From a virus, in IMG/VR virus record IMGVR_UViG_3300005253_000523, positions 5,091 through 69,090 of that record: DNA of 64,000 bases; one strand, 5' to 3'. Below are positions 5 to 62,501 of the stretch, piece after piece; the first letter of the stretch is position 1, and every line of letters begins with the position of its first letter. The position numbers were made by a program, and so were the translations under genes. A model generated the notes under the pieces. The model had not been told where the DNA came from and made no database searches. It saw nothing but the letters and a program-made list of their open reading frames with translations.

Positions 5-1207
5 TTAGCTGGGGACCGCGATGTTCTTCACGAGCGTCAGAGCTGTCAGCTCCTCGATCTGCGCCTGCGCCTTCACCGTGATGGCGAACTCGTTGGCACC
101 CCGGAAGATGTTCCGGTCCCGCTCGATGCGGATGTCGCGGCCGATGGCCAGGATGAGGTTCTTCGGATCGGTGAGCAGCATGCGGCCACCGGTCTTGTAC
201 GTGACCTTGACGGTCGCGCCCGAGCCGATCGTGCCACCACCCAGGCGGGTGATGGTGCCGTTGGCCAGATCGACCGTGTAGTCGTTGCCGGCGCCGGCAA
301 CGAACTGGGCCTCTGGGTTCTTGCCCAGCGCCTGGTTGATCACGACCTGTCCGGTGATCGGCGAGAAGCTGAGCTGCGACGCCGTGGTGCCATCGGTGTT
401 CATGACCACATCCTCGGAGAACTGTGGCTCCGAGGGCAGCAAGGACACCGGCATCATCGGGATGCCGAACGGCCGAGGTGCATCGGCACCGTTGACGGCA
501 GCGTCGCCGAGGCCGGTGCCACGGTTCGACAGACCCTCGCGGTACGCCTGCTCGTGATCGAACGACAAGAACCACCGCATCGCGGCCACGTTCTTGAGGA
601 ACTTGTTGGGCATGGCGCGCTTCGCCTGCCCGAAAACGCTCTGGGCGATCGTCGCGTTCTGCGCGTCGACGACGTTGCCGCCTTCGGCCAGGGCCAACCA
701 ACCCTGAAACAGCGCGAGGTAGCTGTCCTTGACGAACAGCGTGGTGCTCCCACCTTCGATGAGGTCGGTTTCGAGAGCGGCGGGACCATTGGTCAAGCCA
801 CCCCAATACAACTCTTCCAAGTTGTTGGCGAGCTGTCGCGCCATCATCTGAATGATGCGCTCCTCGATCTTGTCGCCCTCGATGTTGTGCTCCTTGAAGA
901 TGTCGCCGATCTCGAACGGCACCATGATCTCGGAGGGCTGCAGCGTGATCTTGCTGGTCGTCACGCCACGACGAAGGTTGGGATCGACCGCCTCGGCCTT
1001 GGGAACCGCGACACGATTGCCGACGCCGATCTTCTCGATCAGTGCCTGCTCGTTGCGGAACCTCTCGACCCGGACGACGTTCCGCATCGACGTCTCGTCA
1101 ATGACGAAGTCGATGAAACGGTCAGCCTGCTTGGGATTGAGCTTCCCGGCATTCGCCAGGGCCGCCGTGGTGATGGTGGCCTTTTCGATCAGCTCTTTGT
1201 TGGTCAT
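5..1207 (-). CDS. Major capsid protein (HK97 fold, PBSX XkdG-like) with a beta-rich insertion near the C-terminus
   Basis: N-terminus ELIEKATITTAALANAGKLNPKQADRFI...IEKIGVGNR resembles XkdG-type capsids; C-terminus LLTDPKNLILAIGRDIRIER; lies downstream of protease and scaffold. Confidence 0.85.
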   Translation of the reverse strand: MTNKELIEKATITTAALANAGKLNPKQADRFIDFVIDETSMRNVVRVERFRNEQALIEKIGVGNRVAVPKAEAVDPNLRRGVTTSKITLQPSEIMVPFEIGDIFKEHNIEGDKIEERIIQMMARQLANNLEELYWGGLTNGPAALETDLIEGGSTTLFVKDSYLALFQGWLALAEGGNVVDAQNATIAQSVFGQAKRAMPNKFLKNVAAMRWFLSFDHEQAYREGLSNRGTGLGDAAVNGADAPRPFGIPMMPVSLLPSEPQFSEDVVMNTDGTTASQLSFSPITGQVVINQALGKNPEAQFVAGAGNDYTVDLANGTITRLGGGTIGSGATVKVTYKTGGRMLLTDPKNLILAIGRDIRIERDRNIFRGANEFAITVKAQAQIEELTALTLVKNIAVPS

Positions 1208-1271: not shown

Positions 1272-2624
1272 CTACGTACCGAGTACACTACCCCATCCGA
1301 TGTCGTCTTCCGATTTCTTGACCTCGGTGGCCTCGGGAGGATCTCCGTCACCAGCACCCGTGGGACGGATGCCCTCGACCGCTTCGAGACGCTTGGTCAA
1401 GTCACCGACCGACTTGTTGATGGTCTCGATCTTCGTGTCGACCTTGCCACCCATGGCCTCGATGGCCTTGGTAACAGGAGTGAGATCGACGGCCGCTGCA
1501 GGCGCGGTCTTTGCGACCTGCTCACCGGCCAGCTCCTTGAGGATCGACTGCAACGCCTCGACCGCTCGCTTGAACTGACTGAGACGGACGCGCTTCATCT
1601 TGGCGCCTGACTTGAACACGATCATGGGATCGGCATCGTTCTCCGAGCCCATGGCCTTGAAGATCTCGATGTCCCTCTTCTCCGTCTGCGTGGCAGGCTT
1701 GCCGTACTTGTCGATGATCGCTCCGAGCGACGCAGCGATCGAACGCATTTCACTACCCTGCGCGTCTGCGATGTCGGCGTCGGCCTCCATCTCACCAAGC
1801 TTGTTGGACAGGGCCGTCAGCTTTTCCATCGCGGCCGTCAGCGCCCGCATCGTCGATCCCTCGACCTTCTCGGTCTTCTTGTCCTTCTCCTTGGCGCTGC
1901 TGACCTGACCGCTCATCAGGTTGAGCTGATTCATGACGGTCTTCAGCGAAGCAATCATCGCGGGACTCAGCGGCTTGTCACCGAGATCCTTGGCCTGGTT
2001 CACGATGCGTGTGATCGCGGCCAGTGCGGTCTTGGCTGACTTGGCACCAGCGCCGGCCTTCACCGCCTTGGTCACCACCTCGGAATCACCGGCCGCATCG
2101 GCAGCGGCGTCCGCTTCACCTTCGGTGGCAGCGGCGTCCGCTTCACCTTCGGTGGCAGCGGCAGCGCCGTCGCCCTCGGTGGCAGCATCGCCGGCACCAT
2201 CTGTGGCAGCGTCGCCCTCGGCGGCAGCAGCAGCATCGCCGTCGCCCTCGGCTGCAGCACCTGCGGCGCCGTCGCCGTCACCCTCGGTGGCAGCGCCGTC
2301 GCCGTCACCCTCGGTGGCAGCACCAGAGCCATCGCCGTCGCCCTCGGCTGCGGCAGTCTCATCGAGATCGCCGAGTCCGAGAAGATCCATCATGCTGGCA
2401 TCGCCGTCTCCGGTCTCCGCAGCAGCAGCGCCCTCGGTCTTCTCGACTCGTTCCCTGCCTTCACTGGCCGTAATCGCTGTTCGTTTGGTGGTCATTCCAT
2501 CCTCCGGTGGGGCGCGTTTGATGATCAGGAAACGTCGACGGATCGCAGGGAAATCAACGATCGAAACCTCTCTGGTTTCAATGTCTTTGAGTTCTGCCTT
2601 TGCATTGGCATTCGTTCCCGCCAT
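1272..2624 (-). CDS. Capsid scaffolding protein carrying the terminal protease strand (XkdF N-terminal-like motif)
   Basis: LKDIETREVSIVDFPAIRRRFLIIK motif, acidic Ala/Gly repeats, coiled coils, directly upstream of MCP. Confidence 0.7.
   Translation of the reverse strand: MAGTNANAKAELKDIETREVSIVDFPAIRRRFLIIKRAPPEDGMTTKRTAITASEGRERVEKTEGAAAAETGDGDASMMDLLGLGDLDETAAAEGDGDGSGAATEGDGDGAATEGDGDGAAGAAAEGDGDAAAAAEGDAATDGAGDAATEGDGAAAATEGEADAAATEGEADAAADAAGDSEVVTKAVKAGAGAKSAKTALAAITRIVNQAKDLGDKPLSPAMIASLKTVMNQLNLMSGQVSSAKEKDKKTEKVEGSTMRALTAAMEKLTALSNKLGEMEADADIADAQGSEMRSIAASLGAIIDKYGKPATQTEKRDIEIFKAMGSENDADPMIVFKSGAKMKRVRLSQFKRAVEALQSILKELAGEQVAKTAPAAAVDLTPVTKAIEAMGGKVDTKIETINKSVGDLTKRLEAVEGIRPTGAGDGDPPEATEVKKSEDDIGWGSVLGT
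2095..2352 (-). repeat. Degenerate tandem repeats encoding AATEG(D/E)(GD/AD) units in the scaffold
   Basis: Repeated gccgtcgccctcggtggcagc and gcgtccgcttcaccttcggtggca units. Confidence 0.85.
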
Positions 2625-2651: not shown

Positions 2652-5015
2652 TCAATCCTCACGCAATTTCACGCGCCGCGCGAAACCACCCATGGAGAAG
2701 CCACGGAACTCTCCGCTCTTGATCTTCTTCCAGATCGACTTGTCGAGCACGTGATACATCACCAACCACGATCCCTTCTTAACTTTCTGTCCACCGATGG
2801 TCAAATTTATGGGTGCGATGTAGCTCTCGAAGATCTCGACGACGCTGTTCACGTTCTTCCGATGCATCAGCCCACGGTTCTGGAACCTGGCCAGCCAACC
2901 ATGCGCTGCCCTCTCGATGGTCACAGGCTTGACGGTATCCTCGTGTGCGTCGACCTCGTCCGGTTCGAGCACAATGCCAAGGACGATGTGCTTGTCCTCC
3001 TCGGCCTTGTCGATCGGAAGCATTCTGATCGTGTGACCATCAACGTCCTCGCGCTTCTCGGTCAGGATCACATCGGCCGGATCGATGCTGCCCTTCTCGA
3101 TTGCTGCCAACCTGGCGAGTTGCGTGGCTGGAGGCGCCGGTCCATTGCGTTGCTGCTCAGGCTTCCCCTGATCGGCCCAGAACTCACCGGGCATGATGCT
3201 GGTGAGTGACTTGCCGTCGAGCTTCAAGCCGTGTGAATGGATCCCGTCGAATGCGGACGACATCACCTGCAGCTCGTGATCGTGACCACCGCCACCTTCG
3301 GTGGTCGTGAATTCCTCTTCGTTGATCAGAACCTTGTGGACGTGCAGACCACTATCTGGAATCGTCTCGTTCGCAGTCGGCCGCGACATCGTGTGTTCGT
3401 GCTCGCCGTCTTCCTCGGTCACGACGCGCGTGCCATCAGCCAGAACGAATAAGTGAATGTGACGACCGTCGTTCTGGGTCTTCTTCGCTTCACGGATCAG
3501 GTTGTGAACGTGGACACCAGCCTCGGGCACCTGGTTCGGGAACCCCTTCAAGATTTTTTCCATGCTGCTGATCTTGATCAGCCTGCGCTCCTTGCTTGGC
3601 ACGAGCGCGAGATCGAACAGCGGCATGTGATCACGGGTCGGTCTTGCCGATGCCTCGTGGAAGTGAACACGGCCACGGTGTTCCTCTGGTACCGATTCCT
3701 GCACGAACGATTCGATGAGTTCTCGCGTCGCCGGATCGACGGGACCGTTGATGAGAATGCCGGCCGCGTCGACGACGATTGCGTTCGATCGCAAGACCAT
3801 CGAATGTCCGAGGCTCTTGAGTAGCTCCTCCATCTTCGCGACGCGCTTGATGTTTTCACAGCGGCCAGTGCGTGAGTTGTAGCGTTTCCCGGGCGGACAC
3901 TTCGGTTGGATCTGCGCTGGCAACTTGCGACCACCAGGATCCAGCGACGGCGACGTGATCGTGTGCGACGCCTTGTTCTCCTTCGGTCGTCCGATGACTG
4001 CCTTCACGCCAGGCGCCAAGGTGATCGTCCGGAAAGATCCAGTCTGAAAATCCCCTGGATTCCGTTGCCGGAACCGGAAGCTGTTCGGCTTCTCGTCGAC
4101 ACCCTTGCCGTCGAATGTCGTTTTGAAATCGTTGTCCTTCAGCCACTGCCGCGCCTGCGCCAGCGAGAACTTCTCCTTGTCGAAAATGATCGTCTGGACT
4201 TCGGTGCTCGTGGGCTCCTGCTTGGCGACTCGCTTCGTCGCAAAGTTGCTGATCACGAAGGTCTTGTATGCCTTGTAGTTCCCACGACCATCGGGAACGG
4301 AATGTGAGATCGCCTGGGTCTTGAAGTTTGATGGACCGGCGACGTCGTACGTGACGATGAACTTACTCTTCACGGTCTTGAGGAAGTTCCAGAACCCGTC
4401 GTGGTCGAACTTCTTCTCGCCGACGTTCTGATCGGTCTTCACGTACGGTGGGTCCAGGAAGAACATCGTCGCCGGCCCGTCGAACTGCTTCATGACCTTG
4501 CGATAATCAGACGAAAATACCTTGACGCCCTTGAGCCGCTCCTTGGCCTTCTCCAACCGATCCGGAACGGTGACGGTGGTACCGATCGCCGTGCGATCGA
4601 TTCCGCCCTTCGGATTGCGCATGAAACCCATCCGTCGTGTCATCACTAACTTGTAGAAGCGCGTGATCTTTGTAGTCGGCGTGGACTTCTTCAACTGATT
4701 GAAGAGTTGCTCGGTCGCCTTCCAGCTCATCCGTTTCAGCGCAGCGAATTCGGCCGGCGTCATGTCACGGATGAACTTGAACGCCTCGGCGATGTCGGTG
4801 TCGAGATCGTTCAAGACCTCCGTCTCGACCTTGGTCTTGGCCCAGAACACAGCGGCACCACCAGCGAACGCTTCGACGTACGACTTGTGTTCCGGGAACA
4901 GCGGGATCAGACGACCAGCCAGTCGCGACTTTCCTGCCGGCGATCCGAAGACCTGGGCACCGACGCGCTTCATCAGCTCGATGGCGTCAGGCGGAAGATC
5001 GTGCGGAGCGTTCAT
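2652..5015 (-). CDS. Polyprotein: Dam/D12-class N6-adenine methyltransferase + unknown domain + His-rich repeats + XkdF-like prohead serine protease
   Basis: GSPAGKSRLA, YVEAFAGGAAVF, LNDLD, FLDPPY (Dam); GxHxH x6; IVLGIVLEPDEVDAH...GLMH...IFESYIAP...KKGSW...IWKKIKSGEFRGFSMGG (XkdF). Start 5015 overlaps the MuF stop (ATGA). Confidence 0.85.
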   Translation of the reverse strand: MNAPHDLPPDAIELMKRVGAQVFGSPAGKSRLAGRLIPLFPEHKSYVEAFAGGAAVFWAKTKVETEVLNDLDTDIAEAFKFIRDMTPAEFAALKRMSWKATEQLFNQLKKSTPTTKITRFYKLVMTRRMGFMRNPKGGIDRTAIGTTVTVPDRLEKAKERLKGVKVFSSDYRKVMKQFDGPATMFFLDPPYVKTDQNVGEKKFDHDGFWNFLKTVKSKFIVTYDVAGPSNFKTQAISHSVPDGRGNYKAYKTFVISNFATKRVAKQEPTSTEVQTIIFDKEKFSLAQARQWLKDNDFKTTFDGKGVDEKPNSFRFRQRNPGDFQTGSFRTITLAPGVKAVIGRPKENKASHTITSPSLDPGGRKLPAQIQPKCPPGKRYNSRTGRCENIKRVAKMEELLKSLGHSMVLRSNAIVVDAAGILINGPVDPATRELIESFVQESVPEEHRGRVHFHEASARPTRDHMPLFDLALVPSKERRLIKISSMEKILKGFPNQVPEAGVHVHNLIREAKKTQNDGRHIHLFVLADGTRVVTEEDGEHEHTMSRPTANETIPDSGLHVHKVLINEEEFTTTEGGGGHDHELQVMSSAFDGIHSHGLKLDGKSLTSIMPGEFWADQGKPEQQRNGPAPPATQLARLAAIEKGSIDPADVILTEKREDVDGHTIRMLPIDKAEEDKHIVLGIVLEPDEVDAHEDTVKPVTIERAAHGWLARFQNRGLMHRKNVNSVVEIFESYIAPINLTIGGQKVKKGSWLVMYHVLDKSIWKKIKSGEFRGFSMGGFARRVKLRED

Positions 5016-7165
5016 GGTCCGAAAGATAGTACCACCGGCTCGGTACGGCACAGCGGATGGAACGGTGGCAGGACTGCCCCGGCCTCGATCAGACGATCGG
5101 TAGCGTCTCCACTTCCCTTATCAGCACCGTCCAGTGCTTCCTCAATCGCAGGGCCAGAGATCCACGGTTGGATCTGTCGAATTTGTTCAGGATTCTTCGC
5201 GTCGAGGAAACGATCGATGTGCTTGCCAGCAGTCTCGACCGTGAATGTCTGACCAACCATTTGCTGGCAGTTGTGTACTACGACATCAGCAACGATGTAC
5301 GTAGGATCATCTCCCTCAATCTCCAGGTTATAGCAAGGCAGGGCCAGCTTGATCGGTTCAAGACGTAGGGGAATCCAACCAATCAGGCAGTCTGTTTCAA
5401 CTTGCGACGCGTCCGTACACCAGCGAGCGCCATGATCAGGGTACGAGTAATGGCTTTGATCGGATCCCTTTTTAGATCGGCCTCTCGGATCCTCACAGCG
5501 ATCCAGCCGTTGCGAATGATGGCTTCCTGTTTTGATTGGCTTATGACCCGCCCTTTTGTGGTGTGCCAATATATTCCATCCACCTCCAAGGCTATCGAAC
5601 CAAGAATCAAGAAATCCACGGATCCATTTCCCGCTTGTACTTCCGCCTCGTATCGCAGACCGAGATATTTCAGGGTCTCCTCGACGGCCAACTCCGGATA
5701 GGTCGCCGCCGTACTTCGGCAGTAGCACGCCTTCGAACAGTAACGCTTGTTCAGCCCTTTGAATTCCCCGCCGCAATGCTGGCACAGTCGTGCTTGAGAA
5801 TATGTCGCACATTTTCGCGAACAGTGTTCTCTTCGTTTTTGCAATAAAACCTCGACGGGCTTCAACCTGAATCTCTTGCTGCACCGCTTGCACCGAGTCC
5901 AGAGCGCTTCCGGTGGCAAACCTTTCCTTCCGGCCTTTCTGCGACATGCCAATGAACAGTGTCTCCAACTGCCTCTGAGGACTTCCGCTCTGCGCCTCTC
6001 GATGACCTTTCCGCAGTGTTCGCAGGCCGTCGTTAACCAGTAAATCTTTTTTTTGTGGCGATATTGGCACTCCCGACCGCAATACTTCTTCCTGTAGTAT
6101 CTGGACGGATGCGTTCGTATCGCTGCCCCGCAACCTACGCACTCTAACGAAATCGGCATCTGTTATCTCCCGAGCCGCCACCCAACCCCTAGCAGTCAGG
6201 ATTTCGTGCTCTGGAGTGATCATAAATCGATGACCGAACGAATTACAGACAAACCAGTCCTCGTTCACCCGTCGTTTTGAAACAGCCTGCACACGCCGCT
6301 TGAATCCGTGCCCTGTCAGGATTTCTGTACCAGGCGTCACGTCTTCGATCGGCAGCTTGCCTCCACTACCCAGGGTCACAAGAGACCCTGGCGCAAAACA
6401 TATCTGTCCAGTACGATCGTCATTGGGATTGGTCAGGCGATAGGTTATGACTCCGCCCTTCTGGAAGCCTTCGATCTTCGAGAAGGTCCGTCCCTGCTGG
6501 GCGGCCACGCTGGAGAGCTGCCGGAAGTAGAGTTCGGGATTGCCGGCGTACTGCGCGGGAATCGTCGGCGCGAATGAAGTGACACCACCAGGCACCAGAC
6601 CGAACTCACGACCGAGCACCGGACCCAGCTCTGCCGACGCCGCCCGGAAGCTCAGTCCCTGGTTGAGGATCACGTCCTCGGTCACGCCAGCGATACGCCG
6701 GCTGAGTTGCTCGCTGTAGAAGTCGCCGACCCAGAACACGTGATGGCGTCGGATCGCCTTGACGGTGCGCGTACTGCGCAATGAGAAGCTGAGCTGAACG
6801 CGCGCTTCACGCTGGGTCAGCTTCAACGTCCGAGAGTAGATCCGCTTCACCAGACCCTCGGTGATCACCTTCTGTGGATTGGTCATCGGCGATGCCAATG
6901 GCGCCGCCAGACGTTTCAAGAACGATGACATCGCCTTGCGAGAACTGTTCCCCGCCTTGCGATACGCGACCAGGCTGCCGGCGAGCGAACCACGTGCGGC
7001 ACGCTTCCAGGATCGGTTGGTGAGTTCGGTGAGCTGCTTCTCCGTCTTGATCGTCATGCGACGGATGTTCGACTCCGCCTTCAATATCGCAGCCAGTGTG
7101 CTCTCAACTTCTTCCGACAACTCCATGAGCGTCGGTGTCGTGAGAGCGTCTAGATCAATCCTCAT
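5012..7165 (-). CDS. MuF-like minor head morphogenesis protein interrupted by an intein
   Basis: DDRTGQI|C and LPPFHPLCRT MuF motifs; located between portal and protease. Confidence 0.85.
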   Translation of the reverse strand: MRIDLDALTTPTLMELSEEVESTLAAILKAESNIRRMTIKTEKQLTELTNRSWKRAARGSLAGSLVAYRKAGNSSRKAMSSFLKRLAAPLASPMTNPQKVITEGLVKRIYSRTLKLTQREARVQLSFSLRSTRTVKAIRRHHVFWVGDFYSEQLSRRIAGVTEDVILNQGLSFRAASAELGPVLGREFGLVPGGVTSFAPTIPAQYAGNPELYFRQLSSVAAQQGRTFSKIEGFQKGGVITYRLTNPNDDRTGQICFAPGSLVTLGSGGKLPIEDVTPGTEILTGHGFKRRVQAVSKRRVNEDWFVCNSFGHRFMITPEHEILTARGWVAAREITDADFVRVRRLRGSDTNASVQILQEEVLRSGVPISPQKKDLLVNDGLRTLRKGHREAQSGSPQRQLETLFIGMSQKGRKERFATGSALDSVQAVQQEIQVEARRGFIAKTKRTLFAKMCDIFSSTTVPALRRGIQRAEQALLFEGVLLPKYGGDLSGVGRRGDPEISRSAIRGGSTSGKWIRGFLDSWFDSLGGGWNILAHHKRAGHKPIKTGSHHSQRLDRCEDPRGRSKKGSDQSHYSYPDHGARWCTDASQVETDCLIGWIPLRLEPIKLALPCYNLEIEGDDPTYIVADVVVHNCQQMVGQTFTVETAGKHIDRFLDAKNPEQIRQIQPWISGPAIEEALDGADKGSGDATDRLIEAGAVLPPFHPLCRTEPVVLSFGP
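5270..6400 (-). mobile_element. Intein in MuF (377 aa) lacking an in-frame endonuclease
   Basis: Block A CFAPGSLVTL, block B ITPEHEILTARGW, blocks F/G CYNLEIE...VVHN|C. Confidence 0.9.
5383..6159 (-). CDS. Zn-finger + DUF559/Vsr-like endonuclease nested in the +1 frame of the MuF intein
   Basis: Four CxxC...C(S/G)xxC ribbons; PE...VDFL...ALEVDGIYWH...GWIAVRIRE; SD GGGAG 7 nt before ATG. Confidence 0.85.
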   Translation of the reverse strand: MPISLECVGCGAAIRTHPSRYYRKKYCGRECQYRHKKKIYWLTTACEHCGKVIERRRAEVLRGSWRHCSLACRRKAGRKGLPPEALWTRCKRCSKRFRLKPVEVLLQKRREHCSRKCATYSQARLCQHCGGEFKGLNKRYCSKACYCRSTAATYPELAVEETLKYLGLRYEAEVQAGNGSVDFLILGSIALEVDGIYWHTTKGRVISQSKQEAIIRNGWIAVRIREADLKRDPIKAITRTLIMALAGVRTRRKLKQTA

Positions 7166-10004
7166 TGTCGTCGAAGCGTTTCAGAATCTGCTGGTCGACT
7201 GACTTACGGAAGTTCTGCAGTTTCTCGATCATATCCTCAGCGATTTCTTCGGCGATCGTTTCACCATTCGGAACATCACCGGAAAGAATCTTGTCGACTT
7301 CGGCCTGGCTCGTTTTTGCGCCGACCTGAGCGAGCGCGAACTGCAACGAGTACGGCACATCGAGCTCGATGCCCTTGGGCTCCGGTCCGAAGTCTTCGCC
7401 GAACACATCCTTGCCGATGTTGTCTGCTCTGCGTGGTGTCATACCACCAGACTTCTCAAGGATGTTTGCCATCTTCACTAGGATCTCGTCGTCGGTGATA
7501 TTCGGGTGCATCGACTTGAACGCATGGAATCGAGCCTTCCATCGGGTCATCACGAATCGATTGAACAACTCGTCGTCGTCAGCACGGTCAGGACCGAAGA
7601 CCTGCTCGTCGCCGACGCGCTTCGAGACGGCTGCCGTCGAACGGTTGTAGTCTTCGGAGTTACCCGAGATCAGGACGCGGCCATTTCGACGAGTGACCAG
7701 CATGCCATTGGGCACCGTGAAGCAGGACACCTTACCCTTGTACGGGACACGTGAAATCTGTTTCTTTTGCAACAGATGACGCTGATCACGATGACCGTTG
7801 CTTACCCAGATTGTCGACCATCCCTCTTCACTACGATCTACCTGACGAGTGGTGAGCGCAATACCAAGACGAACACAAATCTCGTGGAGCTGATCGTTCA
7901 ATAACTTCGAAGTCGTACCGTATGTGAATGATCCTTCGCTACCCATCGCGGGACGACTACCATCGCCATCGATCATTGCATCGAGTAATACCTGAAGCTG
8001 ATCGGCCTCAACGCCGAGAACCCAACGAGGCAGACATTTATTCTTGGCGCCATGACCGCAACTATCACGGAGCCATCGCCACATCCCAACGTGACAGGCG
8101 CTGATATTCAACTGACCGGGATGCGATTCGCAGACCCCTACTTTGAAACTCATCTCCTTAAGAGTCCGGATCATGTCATCCGCAACTTCACCAACATTTT
8201 GAGACAGGTTGAATGGACCAGGCGTTTCGGTCGTACTCCCCTCGCTGACAAAATAACCAAGGAACTTTAAGAATGTCGTGCCGTCGACGTTCCAACCTTC
8301 GCGATCCTCATAGCGTTCTAGATCGCGGGTAGGATTTTTGCTCGGCTTATCAGGATGCCAGGTATTATTCGGATCGTTTCGCGGTACCTCGAAGGCTTCG
8401 TAATAGCGACCGCGCCAAGATGCCGAGACAGGGATTTCCAAACAACCACCACCATTGCCACCACGAACATTCTGAAGATCACCGGCTTCACAAAATCTCC
8501 ACGGGCGCTCAGGCCAAGCACTAGCAGCCGTTGGTCGCGTCCACATTCGATGGTTCGGCGTGACCAGTGCATCAATGCCACGGTTCTTCAAGTGAATCAG
8601 TTCGCCGTCATAGTCGTACTGATGGCGGGCAGTCGGGACTTGATACTCAACTTCTCCGGTCGCAGCGTTGTAGGTTGCAAGAGCCTGCTGCGAACTAATC
8701 TCGTCGTACTTCTGCCAACCACGGTCGGTCAAATACTCCGTATCGGATGAGCTACAACGCCCCACGAAGATCGGCGGCAGGCGGAAGCTCTGGCGGATCT
8801 TGTCGCGGTTGTTCTTGTCGTACTCCAACCACAGCTCGTCCCTCTGCTGGTGTGGCTTGGTCGGCTCGATCCGAATCTTGAACGCAGTCGGATTCGGATT
8901 GCCCTCATCCATCGGCTCACCTTCGAGGATGATCATCGAGCTGTAATTTGCCTCCTGTTGCAGCGACTCGATGAACTCAGTTACGCGCTTAACGCTACCA
9001 TCGGTGAGCGTTCCGTTCTCGACGATGAGAAATAACGACGGGACTGCGTTGTTAGACAGCGTGTTGAAGTTCAGCTCCTGCGCCTTGCGACTGCCGAAGA
9101 ACTCGAAGATCGCTCCAATCCATTCGGGAACGCCGTAAGAAGAGTGCGGCGAATAGATTTTGTGATGGAGAACGCTGGTGGCGCGCATCGGAAACTCGAT
9201 TGGTTTTTCATTCGTGCCGTATTCACCGGTCGTGAAGTCGAGATCCCGTGGATCGCCCGCCTCCTTGAAGAATCGGATCCTCTCCGCGCGGATCTGAACG
9301 TAACGCCGAAAGCGCGAGAGCATCTTGACATTGCCGATCGTCAGATCCTCATTGATCACTGGCACGTCGATGACAACTGGATCACGCTCCAGAGAAGTCA
9401 TGCGAACCGTATGCGCATGGATGTGACCGAGTCCAACGAGTTCGCGGTTGGGTGCATCGATCAGTTCCATGTAGCCATTGCCCGTCTGGACCTTGTCGTG
9501 CTTGATGCGCGCACGGATCTCTGTGAGAGACAGCTTCGGATGGACCGCCGATAGTCGAGTACTCAGCCGGGCCTTCTCCGTGTTGATCTCGGTCTCGAAT
9601 TTCGATCGGATCTTCTCGTTGCGCAGGAGCATCGACTCCTTCAATCGGTGGCCGAACTTCACAGTGTTCGTGACCATCGTGCGAATGTTCTGGCCCAGCT
9701 CGTTGCTGTTATCCATGGCCAGCGCGAGGAAACTCAAGTCGTAGGGTGGATCGATGACGGTGGCGCGGCCTTCGATCTTCGTGTGAAAGAGATCGTCCTC
9801 CTCACTCGATGCGTGGCCAAGACTGCGTCCGCCTTCCGGAACCTGCGGCAGCCCATCCTGCTTCTCGATCTTCCGCAGTCCCTCACGAGGACTGATGATC
9901 GTCGCCCTGAGAACCTGATGGTGGCGCTTGCCAGACTTGTCGACGACTTCGACTGGCAGTGTGCGGACGGTTTCGGCGGTAGCGTCTTTGGCCATGTCAC
10001 CCAC
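7155..10004 (-). CDS. Portal protein (PBSX/XkdE type) with intein
   Basis: TGNGYMELI, YSPHSSYGVPEWIGA, NNAVPSLFLIV, IRQSFRLPPIFVG|SEDYNRSTA. Confidence 0.9.
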   Translation of the reverse strand: MGDMAKDATAETVRTLPVEVVDKSGKRHHQVLRATIISPREGLRKIEKQDGLPQVPEGGRSLGHASSEEDDLFHTKIEGRATVIDPPYDLSFLALAMDNSNELGQNIRTMVTNTVKFGHRLKESMLLRNEKIRSKFETEINTEKARLSTRLSAVHPKLSLTEIRARIKHDKVQTGNGYMELIDAPNRELVGLGHIHAHTVRMTSLERDPVVIDVPVINEDLTIGNVKMLSRFRRYVQIRAERIRFFKEAGDPRDLDFTTGEYGTNEKPIEFPMRATSVLHHKIYSPHSSYGVPEWIGAIFEFFGSRKAQELNFNTLSNNAVPSLFLIVENGTLTDGSVKRVTEFIESLQQEANYSSMIILEGEPMDEGNPNPTAFKIRIEPTKPHQQRDELWLEYDKNNRDKIRQSFRLPPIFVGRCSSSDTEYLTDRGWQKYDEISSQQALATYNAATGEVEYQVPTARHQYDYDGELIHLKNRGIDALVTPNHRMWTRPTAASAWPERPWRFCEAGDLQNVRGGNGGGCLEIPVSASWRGRYYEAFEVPRNDPNNTWHPDKPSKNPTRDLERYEDREGWNVDGTTFLKFLGYFVSEGSTTETPGPFNLSQNVGEVADDMIRTLKEMSFKVGVCESHPGQLNISACHVGMWRWLRDSCGHGAKNKCLPRWVLGVEADQLQVLLDAMIDGDGSRPAMGSEGSFTYGTTSKLLNDQLHEICVRLGIALTTRQVDRSEEGWSTIWVSNGHRDQRHLLQKKQISRVPYKGKVSCFTVPNGMLVTRRNGRVLISGNSEDYNRSTAAVSKRVGDEQVFGPDRADDDELFNRFVMTRWKARFHAFKSMHPNITDDEILVKMANILEKSGGMTPRRADNIGKDVFGEDFGPEPKGIELDVPYSLQFALAQVGAKTSQAEVDKILSGDVPNGETIAEEIAEDMIEKLQNFRKSVDQQILKRFDDNED
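7659..8756 (-). mobile_element. Intein in portal (366 aa) with in-frame LAGLIDADG homing endonuclease
   Basis: CSSSDTEYLTDRGW, VTPNHRMW, FLGYFVSEGS and LDAMIDGDGS motifs, VSCFTVPNG...ISGN|S. Confidence 0.9.
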
Positions 10005-12124: not shown

Positions 12125-13464
12125 TACTTGAGCTGTGCAACTTCAAGCCGACTGATCGCAATCTTGTGAAACTTCTGTTTCTGTTCGCAGCCGAGGCCAG
12201 CGATATCGAGTTGCTTGCATGCGACAAGTGTACTGCCGACGCCGGCAAACGGATCGACGACGAGGTGACCCTTGCTCGCGTGCCGTCGTAGCAACCTCTC
12301 CATCAACCACACAGGCTTCTGCGTCGGATGATCGAATCGTTCCTTGCCCCTGCACGTCGGTCCCGTGATGACGTCGTGTGCCTCCGAACTACCGGCGTTC
12401 TTCCACGGCGTGAAGTGCGCGGTGCCTCTCGTAGCCCAGACGATCGCCTCCTTGGCATGCGAGTAACCGGGCCTGGACTGCGGCGCTGGATCTGTCTTGT
12501 GCCAGATCAGTGCACCGCGATACTTCCAACCCATTTCATCGAACACGTTCTGGTATGTGCCCACTGCCTCCACGGAACAGAAACTGACGATGGTAGCGGT
12601 GGCGGACATTGCCTTCGCCACCTCGAACACCCAACTGACGTCGAGCTGATCCCAGCTCGGCGCTTCGCCCAGCGCCTTGCGCTCCTTGTAAGCTATCGGC
12701 GACCAGTGCAAGGAGTACGGTGGGTCGGTCAAACAGAGATCGAACTTGTAGCTCTTGTCCATCCACTTCGGGATCCAGCTCTGCCAGTCGCCGCGTTCCA
12801 CGCGATGAAGACTCGCCCCTGTGCCCTCGTCGTCCGACTCGCTCTGCTTGCGCTGCCGCTGTCGCTCCTCTGCCTTCTTGTGTAGTCGGCGCTCTCGGCT
12901 CATGCGACGGATCTCGGACAGCGCCTTGCGCTCTGCCTCCGATCGTTTCTTGGTGTCGGCGATGCCGTTGATCCGCTTCTTGTCTTCGGCTGACAATGTG
13001 GTCGCCAACTGGATCGCCAACGCAGCCGTCGACTCAGCGATGTGAAGTTGCAGGGCGACATACAGACTGAAGCGCGGTTGCTTCTTTCCATTTTTCGGAA
13101 ACTTGTCAGGTTTAGTATCGAAGATGCCTTTCCATCGGATCAATGCCTCGCCCATCTCGATCGATGAGAAGTTGCGCCGCTGAACGTTCTCGATGATCTG
13201 GATCCGGAGCGCACTCTCCGCGTGCTGGTTCGCAACGATGACGGCAAGCACCTTCCGCTTCAACTTCTTGCACGCCATCATCCGGCGGAATCCCGCGATC
13301 AATTCGTATGGCTTCTTGCCCTTCTGCTTCGATAAGGCAATCGGTGTGATCTGACCGTCGCGTTTGATCGTGTCTGCCAGCGCATCGATCTCGGCGGTGT
13401 CGGTACGTGCGCGCCAACCCAGATCTATTTGAGACGGCTGTACCTGTATGACCCGGTCGTTCAT
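12124..13464 (-). CDS. ParB-like N-terminal domain fused to a beta-class N4/N6 DNA methyltransferase
   Basis: LADTIKRDGQITPI...LIAGFRR...IENVQR (ParB); TDPPY, HPTQKP, VVDPFAGVGST (MTase). Confidence 0.9.
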   Translation of the reverse strand: MNDRVIQVQPSQIDLGWRARTDTAEIDALADTIKRDGQITPIALSKQKGKKPYELIAGFRRMMACKKLKRKVLAVIVANQHAESALRIQIIENVQRRNFSSIEMGEALIRWKGIFDTKPDKFPKNGKKQPRFSLYVALQLHIAESTAALAIQLATTLSAEDKKRINGIADTKKRSEAERKALSEIRRMSRERRLHKKAEERQRQRKQSESDDEGTGASLHRVERGDWQSWIPKWMDKSYKFDLCLTDPPYSLHWSPIAYKERKALGEAPSWDQLDVSWVFEVAKAMSATATIVSFCSVEAVGTYQNVFDEMGWKYRGALIWHKTDPAPQSRPGYSHAKEAIVWATRGTAHFTPWKNAGSSEAHDVITGPTCRGKERFDHPTQKPVWLMERLLRRHASKGHLVVDPFAGVGSTLVACKQLDIAGLGCEQKQKFHKIAISRLEVAQLK

Positions 13465-13736: not shown

Positions 13737-13808
13737 TCTTATCGCGCCTTAGTGGAAACGGGTCAAGTCTGTATCCTACTAAAGCCGTAATGGAATGCAA
13801 GGGCTTTT

Positions 13809-21511: not shown

Positions 21512-21598
21512 GGCGTTTCCGCCCCGGAGCAGTGCGGCGGTCGATTTCTCCAGATATTTCTCGACATGCTACTAAAGCGGGTTTAGATTAGGTTTATG
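21512..21598 (+). repeat. Promoter-cassette repeat, copy 2
   Basis: Near-identical to 21223-21310; TCGACA-17-TAGATT-6nt-ATG. Confidence 0.8.
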
Positions 21599-50853: not shown

Positions 50854-51756
50854 TCAAGGGACGAGCCCGGCCTCGGTCGGGCTTTTCTCTTTTTGGAAAA
50901 GCATCTGGAATGCTAACGCCGCTTGCTGCGGGACGACGGCGTTGCCGAGACATCCAATTCGGTCCACCCGCTTTGGAACCCCATGAGCCACTCGACCCAC
51001 GTCGGGTTCAATGTTCCACCAGCCACTATCGGTAGAGGTTCGCTGCCGATCGAGTTCGCCCCCCTTTTGGCTCCCTTGAACGTCCTTTGGTCGCGCCGAA
51101 CAGGAGTGGGCCACATTTTCACGGCTGCGCCGAGACTCGGGTTCCCCTTTTGATACATCGTCGGGCCCCTGTCGCCATCCGATCTTGTCGGCGTCGGCCA
51201 CATGCCGCGCGCCACTCCGTCCAGCGTTGGGCGAAGCGTCCCACTCTTGTCGCGCTGCCATCCTCCCGCCTCGTTCGCTCGCGGCGTGGGCAAGAATAAA
51301 GACTCGACGCCGGAGATGGGGCGCTCCAACGTCGGCCGCTCGAAGCACCGACCACTCTGCATCGTACCCGCAAGCGGCCAAGTCTCCGAGTACACGGTCG
51401 AGTCCCCGGTTAACGAGAGCTGCGACGTTTTCAATGAACACGTATCGGGGTCGAAGTACGCGAATGATGCGGGCGAACTCTGACCAGAGTCCGGACCTCT
51501 CTCCATCGATGCCGGCGCGCTTCCCTGCGTTGCTGATGTCCTGGCAGGGGAACCCTCCACAGATGATGTCTGGTCGTTCCGTTTGCTCATCCACTTCCCT
51601 CACATCATTGTATCGCTTGACCTCTGGCCAGTGCTTGGCCAATACAGCGCGGGCATATGGATCCGACTCCGCCTGCCAGATCACTGGACCCAGACCGCAC
51701 ATCTCAAGGCCAAGTTCAAGGCCACCGATGCCAGAGAAAAGAGATCCGATTTTCAT
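50854..51756 (-). CDS. dcm: C5-cytosine DNA methyltransferase, alpha subunit
   Basis: SLFSGIGG, GGFPCQD, ENV, GAPHLRRRVF, LGNAVVPQ; motif IX is missing in this frame. Confidence 0.9.
   Translation of the reverse strand: MKIGSLFSGIGGLELGLEMCGLGPVIWQAESDPYARAVLAKHWPEVKRYNDVREVDEQTERPDIICGGFPCQDISNAGKRAGIDGERSGLWSEFARIIRVLRPRYVFIENVAALVNRGLDRVLGDLAACGYDAEWSVLRAADVGAPHLRRRVFILAHAASERGGRMAARQEWDASPNAGRSGARHVADADKIGWRQGPDDVSKGEPESRRSRENVAHSCSARPKDVQGSQKGGELDRQRTSTDSGWWNIEPDVGRVAHGVPKRVDRIGCLGNAVVPQQAALAFQMLFQKEKSPTEAGLVP
50913..51590 (-). CDS. C5-MTase beta subunit (TRD + motif IX) nested in the +1 frame
   Basis: (L/W)PTP repeats and LNPTWVEWLMGF.SGWT; GAGG SD. Confidence 0.75.
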   Translation of the reverse strand: MSKRNDQTSSVEGSPARTSATQGSAPASMERGPDSGQSSPASFAYFDPDTCSLKTSQLSLTGDSTVYSETWPLAGTMQSGRCFERPTLERPISGVESLFLPTPRANEAGGWQRDKSGTLRPTLDGVARGMWPTPTRSDGDRGPTMYQKGNPSLGAAVKMWPTPVRRDQRTFKGAKRGANSIGSEPLPIVAGGTLNPTWVEWLMGFQSGWTELDVSATPSSRSKRR

Positions 51757-55123: not shown

Positions 55124-56092
55124 CTACGCTGCCTCCCTCTCACCCCAGCCGGTGACGCTCGCCTTGCTGGGCCGGGTGAAGATCGCGAAGTGGGCGTCGC
55201 GGCCCTGCTTCAGTGTGGCGGTGAACTCGACCGCGCTACCGCGCAGGTCTGACCGACCCGGTCCGGTCCGTGTACCGTTGCTGAGTTCGCTCTGCAGATC
55301 GTTCAGGTCCAGGCTATCGACCTCGGCGTTCCAGGCGTCGCGCAGCCGGTTGTCCTCTGCGTGCTGCGCATCGAACAAGGTCTGCGGGCAGGTGCCCCAG
55401 GCGAGCCAGGTGCCGGCGTCGGTAACTACCTTCACCGTCATCTTGAACTGCGTGCCCCAGTCGGTCTCGCGGCTCTTCACCGAAACGACCGTGCCGCGCA
55501 CTGTGACCCGGCCTTCCGGTGCGGGTACGTTCTGCTCGGGCGGGCGGTTGGCCGCGTCGGCGATCCGGCGGGCCGTCTTCATCACCGCCGCGACCTGGGC
55601 CGGGCTGAGCCAAGGCTTCCGCTCGAAGCGGGCGGCGACGTCCGCGACGAAGCTGTTGTCGACCGCGAGCGCTTCTTCGAGGCCGGGGTGCTCGGCGAGG
55701 AACGCTGCGCGCTTCTCAGCGTTGAGGCGGGCCTCGGTCACCTTGGCCTTCTCCGCCCGGCGTCGCTTCTGTTCCAGGTTCCACTCGGCGCGATCGGCAT
55801 ACAGCTCATACTTACCCGCGCAGTCGTGGCCCATGTGGATGTGTTCGCCATCCTCGTGCTTCCAGATGTCGCCGTGGACGAAGTTCGCGCCGCAGACATC
55901 GCAGCGGCCGGGTTGGCTGGCGCGCTCTGGGTGTTGAAAGAAGCGGACCGCAGGATCACTCTGCAGCGCCCGAACCCGCTCCATGTTCCAGATCGGGAAC
56001 GAGGCGCTCGGCAGCGAGTAGCTGGTCACCCAGGTGTACTCGGCCGGGCGGATCTCGCTGACCCGGTGGTTGTCGTTTCGTGTGGTTGTCAT
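55124..56092 (-). CDS. Hypothetical protein with Zn-binding motif and OB-fold-like C-terminus
   Basis: CDVCG...MGHDC; EGRVTVRGTVVSVK...F.RP; ACAGGAG SD. Confidence 0.65.
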   Translation of the reverse strand: MTTTRNDNHRVSEIRPAEYTWVTSYSLPSASFPIWNMERVRALQSDPAVRFFQHPERASQPGRCDVCGANFVHGDIWKHEDGEHIHMGHDCAGKYELYADRAEWNLEQKRRRAEKAKVTEARLNAEKRAAFLAEHPGLEEALAVDNSFVADVAARFERKPWLSPAQVAAVMKTARRIADAANRPPEQNVPAPEGRVTVRGTVVSVKSRETDWGTQFKMTVKVVTDAGTWLAWGTCPQTLFDAQHAEDNRLRDAWNAEVDSLDLNDLQSELSNGTRTGPGRSDLRGSAVEFTATLKQGRDAHFAIFTRPSKASVTGWGEREAA

Positions 56093-56106
56093 CGTCGTGC
56101 TCCTGT

Positions 56107-56334
56107 CTAGTTGGTTTTCCAAATTGCGTGACCGCGCTTCCGGTCGTAGATGACCGCGCGATCATAGTGTGATGGGATCTGTGCGACTGACTCGTGCTGA
56201 GCAGCTTCGATCGAATCGAACTGACCGAGATCGAAGGCAGCCCCGTCCGCGTAGGCCGTAACGCCGTAACGCGCCGACTCGCAGGGAAACGCCTTCGCGC
56301 CGTTCAGGTAGTTGCCGGTGTTGTTGGTTGCCAT
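56107..56334 (-). CDS. Small hypothetical (early) protein
   Basis: Leaderless ATG after repeat promoter. Confidence 0.6.
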   Translation of the reverse strand: MATNNTGNYLNGAKAFPCESARYGVTAYADGAAFDLGQFDSIEAAQHESVAQIPSHYDRAVIYDRKRGHAIWKTN

Positions 56335-56395
56335 AGGTACTAATCTAAACCCGCTTTAGTAGTAGGTCCAGGGATTCGTACAGAAATCGACCGTC
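56332..56395 (-). promoter_or_regulatory. Third copy of the promoter cassette
   Basis: cggtcgatttct...TGGACC-tactactaaagcgggtt-TAGATT-7nt-ATG. Confidence 0.75.
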
Positions 56396-56442
56396 CGCGT
56401 GCGTTATTTGCCGTAAGTCCCGGACACCGCTAGAGTTGTCCG

Positions 56443-56862
56443 ATGGACCAACCGAAGACCGTGACCGTGGAAAAGGCCATCAACTTGCGCGATGGCGAGG
56501 AGCTGCAGGGTTTCATCAAGGAGGCCATCTCTGCCATCCGCCGCGTGAAAGGCGTCGACGGCAAGGCCAACGACGACATGTTTCTCACCGGGATCTTCAA
56601 GGACCATCTCGTCGCGCGCACCCTGGAGAAGGGAAAGTTTTTCCGGTTCCCGTTCACGCGCGATGGCAGCGGCGTCCTGAAGCTCGGCAAGGGAATGGAA
56701 GTGAAACAGATCTTCGCGCCGGTCGCGGCGTCGGTCGAGAAGTCAGAGGATCCGGATCAGCACGTCGAGGTGATGCTCGCCATCGCCAAGAGTGCATCGA
56801 TCGAGACAGAGGAACATCCGATCGTCGACGACCCCGGCTGGGGTTCTGTTCTCGGAACCTAG
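56443..56862 (+). CDS. Orphan protein ending in the scaffold's C-terminal peptide (candidate capsid cargo)
   Basis: Ends DDPGWGSVLGT versus scaffold DDIGWGSVLGT; VEKA/VEKS/IAKS motifs. Confidence 0.7.
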   Translation: MDQPKTVTVEKAINLRDGEELQGFIKEAISAIRRVKGVDGKANDDMFLTGIFKDHLVARTLEKGKFFRFPFTRDGSGVLKLGKGMEVKQIFAPVAASVEKSEDPDQHVEVMLAIAKSASIETEEHPIVDDPGWGSVLGT

Positions 56863-57092
56863 AACGCGGTCGCCGGTCGCTTCGCGCCGTTGGTGATCTC
56901 GTCCCAGCACTCGCCGCAGACCTCGGTGTTCCACTCCGTCTCGTAGTGGGCCGGCTGCTCGTTGCACTCTTGACACGGCCGCTCCTTTGAATCGGTCTGG
57001 TTTCTATTCTCGATGAAACGCCGCGCGGTGATGACCAGCGTGGTCAGTTCATCAAGTAACCGTTCAATCCGTTTTCGCGTCTCTCCGTGCAT
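56859..57092 (-). CDS. Small zinc-finger protein
   Basis: CQEC...CGEC. Confidence 0.5.
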   Translation of the reverse strand: MHGETRKRIERLLDELTTLVITARRFIENRNQTDSKERPCQECNEQPAHYETEWNTEVCGECWDEITNGAKRPATAF

Positions 57093-57702
57093 CGATCTCT
57101 CCGGTGATGAGTTTCTGTAAGCTGGATGCCTTGGTCACGTAAAGGGAATCGATCTGCAGCACTTGCTCGTACAGGACGCAGCGCTGAACCAAGTTGTGGG
57201 CGACGGCATGCCGGTTGCGCCAGCTATCGATCCGAGCATTGCGTTCCCGGCACCGAGCGACGTCCTCTGCCAGGTCATCCATCTCTGCATCGACCGCGTC
57301 CTGGACAGCGAAGGCAAGGTCGCCGGCTTCGTGTATCGGCGCAATGAACATGGCCGACTCCATCGTGGACAGGATTGCCTTGAACGCTTGCAGCTCGGGC
57401 AGGTACGGCGCGGCCACGAAGTAGAGCCCACCGTTCCACGCGCGCAGGGATACGGCGCCGAGGTATCCGAGCAAGGCACGCGTGATCATTTTCCGAATTT
57501 CGGAAACAACGTAGACGCCGCCCTTCTTGTCGGGAGGCATGTACGACTGATCCAGATCCATGCTGACCATCATCTCTCGGAGGTTGGTCACGTCGACGCG
57601 CAGGTCACGGCCGAGCGACCACCACACCAGGAATCCGATCGGCGGTTCACCGAACCAGAGTCGCTTGACCAGCTCTGGCCGGACCTGTTTAGCCTTCGGC
57701 AT
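57064..57702 (-). CDS. DUF6744-like hypothetical protein
   Basis: IGFLVWWSL...AVSLR..GGLYFV. Confidence 0.55.
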   Translation of the reverse strand: MPKAKQVRPELVKRLWFGEPPIGFLVWWSLGRDLRVDVTNLREMMVSMDLDQSYMPPDKKGGVYVVSEIRKMITRALLGYLGAVSLRAWNGGLYFVAAPYLPELQAFKAILSTMESAMFIAPIHEAGDLAFAVQDAVDAEMDDLAEDVARCRERNARIDSWRNRHAVAHNLVQRCVLYEQVLQIDSLYVTKASSLQKLITGEIDARRDAKTD

Positions 57703-58356
57703 TGGTATCATCCTGCGCGTGGAAATAGCGCCAGTCATTGGAATCGACTCCAACGAAACACGTTGACACAAAGTCTGCCGACCTCACTTCGAATAGGTTG
57801 CTGCCTGTCGTGTTTGGTGGTGGGTGGTCGATCGCGATGATCGCGCGAAGCTCCCAACCCTGAACGCCGAAGTTCACCTCAACCTCATCGCCGCTCGATG
57901 GTCGGACACGTTCGGTATCTTTGCACTCTGTCACAAGCCGTATTGCCAAGTCGGCCAGCTCTCGCCACTTCTCTTTACCGGCTTCGCTGTGGTACTCCCA
58001 CGCTGACTCGTCTGACCATTCGTAACAGCACAGTTCTTTCGCGATCAGGTCGCGTGCCTGTTTAGCCTTCGGCATTGTCAGTCAATCCGACCAGCTTCTG
58101 CGGCCGTATATCAGAGAACTCTTTCAACAGCGCGGTCTCGCCTGCATCCGTAGCAACGAAATCACCCTTATCATCTCTACGAGCCCAACCATTGCGTACG
58201 CACTCATTTGCCGTGGCATGACTGATTGTATCGCCAGGGAAAAGCGGACCATTCCGATAGATGTTAAACAATTCTTCGACAACGTGTTTTAGGGCCATGA
58301 ATTTCGTTTCTCCTTTTTGATCAACTCGGGCCGCGCCTGTTTAGCCTTCGGCATTG
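57684..58356. repeat. Three exact 21-bp direct repeats CCTGTTTAGCCTTCGGCATTG (57684, 58057, 58336)
   Basis: Read directly; each marks a NAEG*/MPKAKQ gene junction. Confidence 0.9.
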
Positions 58357-61799: not shown

Positions 61800-62501
61800 T
61801 TACGCTGCCTCCAGGATCCGTTGCACCGTGGTCACGTACCAGCGCCGGCCGCGAGGCTGGAACGGTCCCGCGTTCAGCTCCGACGTAATCGATCGGAGAC
61901 TGCGGTCGGCGTTGTGCATGTCCACGATCGCGGTCACCGTCTCTCGCTCCTTCTCATCCTCGACGAGCCAGGACTTCTCCTCGTCGCCCTCGCCACGCAT
62001 CTCACTTCGGAATCCGAACGGGACACTGCCGACGCGCCGGCCGCGCTTCTTGAGGTGCTGCATGATAAGTCGCGTGCGATCGCTGGTGTGGTTGCGTTCC
62101 AGTTCAGCGGCAGCGGCCATCACCGTCAGCATGAACTTGCCCATGGCAGTGCTGGTATCGATCGCCTGGCCACCGAGATCGACGAGGTGCATGGCTACGC
62201 CTCTGCGTTCCCACTTCGTGGTCACGTTCAAACAGTCGACTGCATTCCGAAACAACCGGTCGAGCTTGATCGCGCAGATGAGATCGGCTTCCTTACGGTC
62301 GAGGGATGCCAGGGCCGATGCACCCGCCGGTCGTTTGTGCAGCGGCGTGAACGCACTGACGCCGGCATCGACGTACAGCTCGACCAGCTCGATCTGCTTG
62401 AAGGAGAAGTACCGCCGGATCACTTCCTCCTGGGCGGCCAGCGAGTAGCCCTCGCGGCGCTGCTCCTCGGTCGATACCCGTATGTATCCGATGCCCTTCA
62501 T
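61800..62501 (-). CDS. Serine recombinase (resolvase/invertase family with short recombinase domain)
   Basis: GYIRVSTEEQ, DAGVSA, RP, KLDRLFR, AELERN..SDR, PFGF. Confidence 0.92.
   Translation of the reverse strand: MKGIGYIRVSTEEQRREGYSLAAQEEVIRRYFSFKQIELVELYVDAGVSAFTPLHKRPAGASALASLDRKEADLICAIKLDRLFRNAVDCLNVTTKWERRGVAMHLVDLGGQAIDTSTAMGKFMLTVMAAAAELERNHTSDRTRLIMQHLKKRGRRVGSVPFGFRSEMRGEGDEEKSWLVEDEKERETVTAIVDMHNADRSLRSITSELNAGPFQPRGRRWYVTTVQRILEAA

Follow-up and report, generated by a model that had tools for sequence, protein, structure and literature searches.

Why should a solitary gene of a phage end in the same peptide as the scaffolding protein, encoded some 55 kb away? The question arises in a 64,000-base stretch of the linear virus record IMGVR_UViG_3300005253_000523 (bases 5091-69090 of a 69,090-bp record whose completeness is estimated at ~72%), which is contained in public runs of marine-sediment metagenomes, none of those listed being of RNA, and is hereafter called the window. 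Within it, a gene for a protein of 139 amino acids (aa) on the plus strand (56443..56862) and the gene for the scaffolding protein on the minus strand (1272..2624) both terminate in GWGSVLGT. An earlier note on this DNA had taken the small gene for an orphan, and its ending for a tag that targets the protein to the capsid or for the mark of an auxiliary or decoy scaffold. The gene is no orphan: it is a displaced member of a large family of phage head-module proteins that has no name, and, judging by sequence, its tail appears to be a conserved, selected element common to scaffold and family that co-varies between the two, is portable, and fits a capsid-targeting tag.

The shared peptide and the family of the 139-aa protein

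A six-frame translation of the window contains just two instances of GWGSVLGT before a stop, one closing the open reading frame (ORF) 1272-2624 (tail codons at 1275..1298, minus strand) and the other closing ORF 56443-56862 (56836..56859, plus strand), the two genes that the earlier note had named. A looser pattern (W..[VIL]L..stop) returned nothing beyond these two tails in the window, and a loose tail pattern applied to the whole 69,090-bp record gave no further convincing case. The residues preceding the tail also agree, being DDIGW in the scaffold and DDPGW in the 139-aa protein (10 of 11 identical when DDP is included), and VEKSED, which had likewise been pointed out and is found at residues 98-103 of the 139-aa protein, has the counterpart VKKSEDD in the scaffold. 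The tail codons read GGA TGG GGT AGT GTA CTC GGT ACG in the scaffold and GGC TGG GGT TCT GTT CTC GGA ACC in the 139-aa gene: five of the eight differ, and every difference is synonymous, which bears out the earlier view that the match lies at the protein level. By chance, an exact eight-residue C-terminal match among ~100 genes would be expected ~1e-8 times, on our own order-of-magnitude estimate.

The 139-aa protein has no match in Pfam or PHROG. None of 50,697 phage records was matched when it and the family members P0019 and P0013 were used as tblastn queries, and scans of viral contigs that used the single 139-aa protein or the single scaffold as queries recovered no relatives. It has one homologue that is 97% identical with a one-codon deletion and another that is 65% identical. 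When 1.84 billion representative proteins were searched with a profile of the 139-aa protein and the two homologues nearest to it, 87 matched at E<=1e-3, of which 35 reached E<=1e-10; most of the matches are 100-250 aa long and align over query residues ~6-105. We define the family by an alignment of 85 sequences (A3); no Pfam or PHROG family is common to these members, a few of which match PHROGs 29592 and 2859, and the alignment delineates what is, on sequence grounds, a newly defined large phage protein family outside every Pfam and PHROG model. Its features are a compact alpha/beta N-terminal domain (N-domain) and an acidic linker; the N-domain motif V-x-K-x(3)-L-x(2)-G-E-E-L is present in the 139-aa protein, and K11, L15, G18, E19, R73 and V87 are near-invariant in the 85 sequences. 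Most members end in [LF]-W-x-G-[VI]-[LI], of which the 139-aa protein has the variant GWGSVL: the strict tail motif lies within the last 12 residues in 58 of the 85, and most others carry a W-x-G variant. The domain is fused behind an XkdF protease in P0096, and stands behind a scaffold-type N-terminal strand motif in four proteins of 280-456 aa (P0073, P0076, P0080 and P0093); apart from this strand motif of some long members, hhalign detected no homology between family and scaffold. The linker between N-domain and tail can carry inserts, a Cys-rich zinc-ribbon-like segment in L067 (1594-2214) and L020 (304-870), and in L070 (1525-2265) a segment of ~70 residues (W-S-G-A-F-V-N-N-L-P-D-S-S-F-L...) that also starts protein P0052.

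Supplied with the 85-sequence alignment, AlphaFold 2 modelled the 139-aa protein at pLDDT 83.9 and pTM 0.69 (pLDDT 41 with an alignment of only three sequences). The model has a helix on an antiparallel sheet (residues 5-91), onto which a helix (106-117) and a strand (121-127) pack back, and leaves the tail free, so that the predicted layout is an N-domain (~5-95), an acidic linker containing that helix and strand, and the C-terminal tail. Fold searches brought up common folds only, and Foldseek against the PDB returned no match at E<=0.001. Cystatin-like matches in VIA-align reached Z 5-6.6 (the folds compared being cystatin, NTF2-like and PH-like), and a comparison with predicted viral structures turned up weak look-alikes of prohead-protease or scaffold-like type, long proteins that bear the names prohead protease or 'chromosome segregation protein'. 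A complex prediction of the major capsid protein (MCP; 39-row alignment) with residues 96-139 scored 0.00 in a run without controls that says nothing either way.

Tails and gene positions in related phages

Scanning viral contigs with an alignment of MCPs yielded 60 loci, with MCPs 45-61% identical. Just upstream of the MCP gene, 59 ORFs of these loci match the scaffold profile, and the strict tail motif is present in 44 of 49 distinct scaffolds as opposed to a background of 151 of the 3670 other ORFs; scaffold homologues (33-51% identity) end in GWGSVLAGQGGKQ, NFWAGVL, NFWSGVL and KFWAGILD. When family genes were sought in the loci and in the whole records of 13 relatives (7 with a match), 17 further genomes with both a scaffold and a family member were obtained. 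In all 17, the family gene shares the strand of the MCP gene and is 1-11 kb distant from it, on the portal side in eight and downstream of MCP in nine. It sits directly between the portal and MuF-like genes in L003 (complete, 93.8 kb) and L004, and in L020 it is followed by a methyltransferase gene and then by the MuF-like gene. The window gene departs from this head-module location on the MCP strand, being ~55 kb away and on the opposite strand, and the slot that the family gene occupies in several relatives is empty in the window, where the portal and MuF-like genes overlap directly. A relative with 42% identity (L074, from a metagenome contig of 4 kb) likewise has small non-head genes around it, which suggests that the subclade closest to the window gene may as a rule be located away from the head module. 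In the cultured phage DLP_5 the scaffold gene follows the protease gene, but the tail is different and a family member is lacking. Family member P0002 (tail GWGGVLAGAGG) and scaffolds P0005 and P0006 (tail GWGSVLAGQGGKQ) have an AG-x-GG extension in common, which is only suggestive: a contig scan with P0006 found nothing, and P0002 was not linked to P0005 or P0006 in one phage.

Whether the two C-termini co-vary in relatives was the check that the earlier note had called for, and the answer from 16 pairs is that tails are more alike within genomes, if not universally. We compared ten residues, anchored on the aromatic residue, in 16 genomes with the tail on both proteins, the window pair included. 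Within-genome identities sum to 66, against a permuted mean of 41.7, and none of 20,000 permutations reached 66; without the window pair, p = 5e-5 by identity and 3e-4 by BLOSUM62, values that overstate the number of events, because related genomes are non-independent and the separate events fewer than 16. Clear within-genome pairs are those of L003 (KKSFWGGRFLG and KADFWGGKFSLK), L004 (LFSNIIG and EWSNVLG), L019 (KKSMWEGVL and KKSLWEGVI), L025 and L027. The same codon is used at only 24 of 56 shared tail residues (L003, with 5 of 5 tail codons identical, is the exception), which argues that the likeness is kept at the protein level and not by recent copying of DNA.

The tail also recurs on unrelated proteins. 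A second family (alignment A7) comprises four proteins of 87-100 aa, from L031, L042, L052 and G004, that have FWGGVL-type tails and match residues 280-315 of a methyltransferase-protease fusion encoded in the window at 2652..5051 (hhalign probability 93.7%, E 1.9e-7). In L020, the ORF 849-1754 encodes a stand-alone D12 N6-adenine methyltransferase (PF02086, 5.6e-17) that ends in KKSVSWKGII and is orthologous to the methyltransferase domain of the same fusion (45% identity over 253 aa, E 2e-74). With the further head-strand ORFs outside the family that carry the tail in the related loci, the short C-terminal peptide is thus common to the A3 family, a D12 methyltransferase, the A7 family and additional ORFs. 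Two of these apparent passengers alternate between the scaffold tail and a protease fusion, as expected if both were routes into the procapsid. L020 also encodes, at 3986-6343, a protein of 785 aa with two methyltransferase-like parts and a C-terminal protease; an internal tail-like KESSVWRGF stands at a domain border, at the end of a methyltransferase domain, as if a tail-bearing methyltransferase gene had been fused to the protease gene.

Surroundings of the gene and the head module

The codon-position GC of the 139-aa ORF is of coding type (0.63/0.36/0.81, compared with 0.59/0.41/0.87 for MCP). The gene is the lone plus-strand gene that it had been called: all its neighbours are on the minus strand, those flanking it have no assigned function, and helicase, primase-polymerase and methyltransferase genes are nearby. 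A contig from another sample (run X2) spans 55521-56788 with 0 differences, and a second contig, of a different study (run X4), bridges 56509-58000, differing by 26 substitutions and by the 3-nucleotide (nt) deletion that the 97%-identical homologue also has; as these independent contigs confirm the local arrangement, it is not an assembly artefact. On the same strand as the gene, 82-96 nt upstream of its ATG, lies a promoter-like repeat of 15 nt, AAACCCGCTTTAGTA (56347..56361, plus strand). Allowing up to three mismatches, it has seven matches in the window where 0.25 are expected, all co-oriented with the local genes; copies lie at 21281, 21570, 21809, 21921, 30996 and 37832 on the minus strand and at 56347 on the plus strand. 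About 60 nt around the copy at 56347 are common to those at 21570 and 21281. Between 21.2 and 22 kb, where ORFs are sparse, four of the copies lie close together, and upstream of the late genes, at 13777-13800 (minus strand), TTGCAT is also followed by GCTTTAGTA. The repeat is a candidate site for a phage promoter or regulator. Near the 139-aa gene, neither a sigma-70-type promoter nor a terminator was detected, the sole terminator-like site being at 56055-56069, ~370 nt upstream of the start. The other-study contig has a mosaic break at 56331, matching the window onward from there and differing before it; because the break falls just upstream of the promoter-like element, the gene and this element together look like a mobile cassette. 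At the other end of the gene, its stop and that of the convergent gene 56859-57092 (minus strand) overlap in a palindrome, CTAG (56859-56862).

The head module occupies the opposite end of the window, on the minus strand. MCP (400 aa, 5..1207; phrog_1623, 2e-70), the presumed binding partner of the tail, matches by tblastn proteins that are annotated as major capsid proteins in phages of Streptomyces and Stenotrophomonas. Directly upstream is the scaffold (450 aa; a weak phrog_3017 match), which consists of an N-terminal strand motif (EVSIVDFPA...), a Gly/Asp/Ala-rich acidic spacer, a helical region and the C-terminal tail. The starting motif, L-x-D-[IL]-E-x-x-E-V-S-[IV]-V-D-x-P-A-x-x-R-x-F-L-I-[IV]-K, is conserved directly 3' of the protease gene: it lies at 2514-2624 (minus strand) in the window and from 9974 in L003, 3816 in L004, 6363 in L020 and 4125 in L073, and DLP_5, too, has it right after the protease gene. 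It seems to resemble the last strand of S78/XkdF-type proteases and may therefore mediate docking between protease and scaffold in trans; read-through from protease to scaffold is ruled out by two in-frame stops (TGA and TAG) between the ORFs.

The fusion at 2652..5051 (799 aa, minus strand) combines a D12 N6-adenine methyltransferase (residues 40-228; PF02086, 2.2e-15) with an XkdF-type prohead protease (680-794; PF14550, 2e-28), separated by a His-rich middle part, and PHROGs 13242 and 1530 indicate that such a fusion recurs elsewhere. Joined to the protease, the methyltransferase is predicted to enter the capsid with it. The MuF-like gene (717 aa, 5012..7165, minus strand) carries a Hint/Vint-type insert and the portal gene (949 aa, 7155..10004, minus strand) a LAGLIDADG_3-type insert; by their sequence these inserts in two adjacent head genes are probable inteins. 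The L003 counterparts are shorter, at 561 aa for the portal and 340 aa for the MuF-like protein. A second late-region methyltransferase, a fusion of ParB_N and an N6_N4 DNA methylase (12124-13464, minus strand), adjoins the packaging genes, a third methyltransferase (phrog_363) is encoded at 50854-51756, and a serine-recombinase-type integrase or invertase (61800-62501, minus strand; phrog_95, 1.1e-53, and phrog_125) lies near the right end of the record. The whole window contains 0 tRNA genes and 0 Rfam families.

What the tail may do

We favour the reading in which the tail is a scaffold-derived capsid-targeting peptide and the 139-aa gene encodes a relocated accessory cargo or head protein, and would give it a probability of about 0.6, capsid binding being argued by analogy. 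The tail (the last ~11 residues, DDPGWGSVLGT) would dock on the scaffold-tail site at the inner face of the capsid protein, and the 139-aa protein would ride into the procapsid beside the scaffold, competing with it, with the compact alpha/beta N-domain as the passenger. Throughout the clade, the tail [VI]-[EK]-K-x(1-6)-[LFM]-W-x-G-[VI]-[LI] would serve as a portable capsid address carried by the scaffold, the A3 family, small domains akin to one part of the prohead-protease protein, and a Dam-like methyltransferase, and direct fusion to the prohead protease would be an alternative way into the head. In the window, the family gene would have left the head module for the opposite strand, among early or replication genes and with a promoter-like element of its own, while its tail still tracks that of the scaffold exactly. 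Conservation, co-variation and portability speak for the targeting tag that the earlier note had proposed; the binding to MCP and the presence in procapsids that went with it, we infer.

The capsid protein is proposed as the partner by analogy with 80alpha, P22 and phi29. In P22 and phi29, the extreme C-terminus of the scaffold contacts the capsid protein. In the 80alpha scaffold, the last 16 residues, which include the RIIK motif, bind the N-arm of the capsid protein (PMC5644958), and CpmB, a protein of the satellite SaPI1, has a homologous C-terminus and competes with the scaffold for the same N-arm site (Dearborn et al., 2017, PMC5644958): a precedent for a shared scaffold C-terminus implying a shared capsid-protein site.

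Several observations weigh against this reading, besides the relatedness of the genomes that enter the co-variation statistics. The tail-bearing methyltransferase is a single case: of its 17 distant homologues in the database (24-36% identity), 0 have the tail. Two of five complete relatives (G007 and G008) gave no family match, so that the family is either dispensable or was missed there by the profile; two of 18 family matches (L042 and L051) lack the tail; and the 139-aa gene itself sits among early-type genes. The own-genome tail ranks only 10th-16th of 16 in three of the 16 pairs (L007, L012 and L052), and the two tails of L020 differ (LFSNIIPI on the scaffold, LWKGVLF on the family protein). 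Nor does the N-domain fold assign a function; the best match to a solved structure in VIA-align, 3hie_A (Z 7.7, root-mean-square deviation 3.1, 68 residues aligned), falls in a range that is common for chance matches.

The best-surviving alternative, though an improbable one, is that the protein is an auxiliary scaffold or assembly factor, bridging, for example, the capsid protein (through its tail) to the portal, MuF-like protein or protease (through its N-domain) and removed on maturation like the scaffold. Such a role would suit the portal-side gene in eight of the 17 relatives, with its place directly between portal and MuF-like genes in L003 and L004, the domain fused behind the XkdF protease in P0096 or behind the scaffold-type strand motif in P0073, P0076, P0080 and P0093, and the weak structural look-alikes, which are scaffold-like or protease proteins. 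However, the modelled N-domain is small, globular and alpha/beta rather than an elongated helical scaffold, its profile shows no similarity to the body of the scaffold, the family was not found in the two complete relatives named above, its position varies (downstream of MCP in nine of 17, 55 kb away here), and the same tail is carried by an enzyme without an assembly role. In its modelled fold and its gene position the 139-aa protein falls outside the class of scaffolding proteins, which are elongated, mostly helical and encoded next to MCP, and the family gene never adjoins MCP, in the window or in any relative. We prefer a cargo or accessory head protein to an assembly factor because of the globular N-domain, because the gene appears dispensable and has moved within genomes, and because an enzyme carries the same tail.

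Less probable again is that the tail binds some other shared partner, such as the prohead protease, the portal or a chaperone, or that it is a degradation tag, in which case scaffold and 139-aa protein would share regulation or turnover and not a capsid site. The alternation of the methyltransferase and the small domains with protease fusion would also fit a peptide that docks on the protease, and [VI]-[EK]-K, conserved immediately ahead of the tail, might mark a site of cleavage. Against this stand the systems solved so far, where it is the capsid protein that the scaffold touches with its extreme C-terminus (P22, phi29 and, in PMC5644958, 80alpha), and the genome-specific co-variation, which argues for a phage-encoded, co-evolving partner and not for a host protease.

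We consider it very unlikely that the protein is a competitive decoy, one that occupies scaffold sites and so alters capsid size or blocks a competing or superinfecting relative in the manner of SaPI1 CpmB. A tail identical to that of the scaffold, the separate location, strand and promoter-like element, and the mosaic break just upstream of the cassette in the variant contig are what a decoy would lead one to expect, but the gene belongs to the phage's own conserved head module in relatives and not to a satellite, satellite features are missing nearby, and the family is old and widespread. The decoy scaffold of the earlier note also sits poorly with the predicted N-domain, which is compact and alpha/beta, with no scaffold-like coiled coil. 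CpmB resembles the 139-aa protein in being a small protein with its own N-terminal domain and a C-terminus homologous to that of the scaffold; unlike CpmB, which belongs to a satellite and redirects capsid size, the 139-aa gene is the phage's own, from a widespread family usually located in the head module, and, in place of a helical dimerisation domain and RIIK, its protein has an alpha/beta domain and an unrelated W-x-G-V-L motif.

Chance resemblance or a non-coding ORF, for which nothing but the shortness of the motif speaks, is effectively refuted by an exact 8-mer at both C-termini that occurs only twice in six frames, by coding-type GC at third codon positions, by conserved homologues with synonymous differences, by the size of the family with its 87 profile matches, and by the co-variation of the tails.

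The capsid-targeting reading can be made more specific, in a form that we advance tentatively and with a little less than even confidence: this clade would practise an encapsulin-like loading of cargo, in which a tail of ~10 residues, copied from the coat-binding end of the scaffold and co-evolving with scaffold and capsid, loads changing passengers into the procapsid for delivery to the next host, namely the alpha/beta family, the Dam-like methyltransferase and the small domains that are otherwise fused to the protease, and in which the tagged gene here is a free-standing cassette with its own promoter, separate from the late operon. The cargo-loading peptides of encapsulins are C-terminal and portable and bind the interior of an HK97-fold shell that is not a virus. 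The likeness lies in a short C-terminal peptide on unrelated proteins, with shell binding in the phage proposed by analogy; unlike an encapsulin, which has no portal and packages no DNA, the shell here is that of a genuine phage, whose genes include portal, MuF-like gene, terminase, protease and a separate scaffold, and the peptide sequence is different. The capsid targeting sequence of T4, carried by IPI-III and Alt, is N-terminal, binds the scaffold core and is clipped by the prohead protease, and the proteins are delivered with the DNA. It, too, is a short portable peptide that brings unrelated proteins, an enzyme included, into the prohead, but it is no copy of the scaffold, whereas the tag here is C-terminal and copies the scaffold tail. 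Nested or fused protease-scaffold genes, as in lambda C/Nu3 and P2 gpO, likewise give two head proteins a common scaffold C-terminus, and so the same procapsid; theirs comes from the same DNA, whereas the two genes here are separate, 55 kb apart and different in their codons. In polyvalent proteins, effector domains such as methyltransferases enter the phage head linked to MuF, portal or other head proteins (Iyer et al., 2017, PMC5512222). The methyltransferase-protease fusion of the window is of the same kind, whereas the 139-aa protein would be linked not by fusion of domains but by a short peptide that docks non-covalently.

In the limited literature searched, we found no account of accessory proteins that a phage itself encodes and that bear a C-terminal tag of scaffold type, and none of the family. 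If the capsid-targeting reading is true, the proteins that uncultured phages package and inject would become predictable from sequence, among them anti-restriction enzymes such as the tail-bearing methyltransferase, and foreign proteins could be brought into HK97-fold phage capsids by means of a short C-terminal peptide. The reading would also provide a mechanistic link between phage scaffolds and the loading of cargo into encapsulins.

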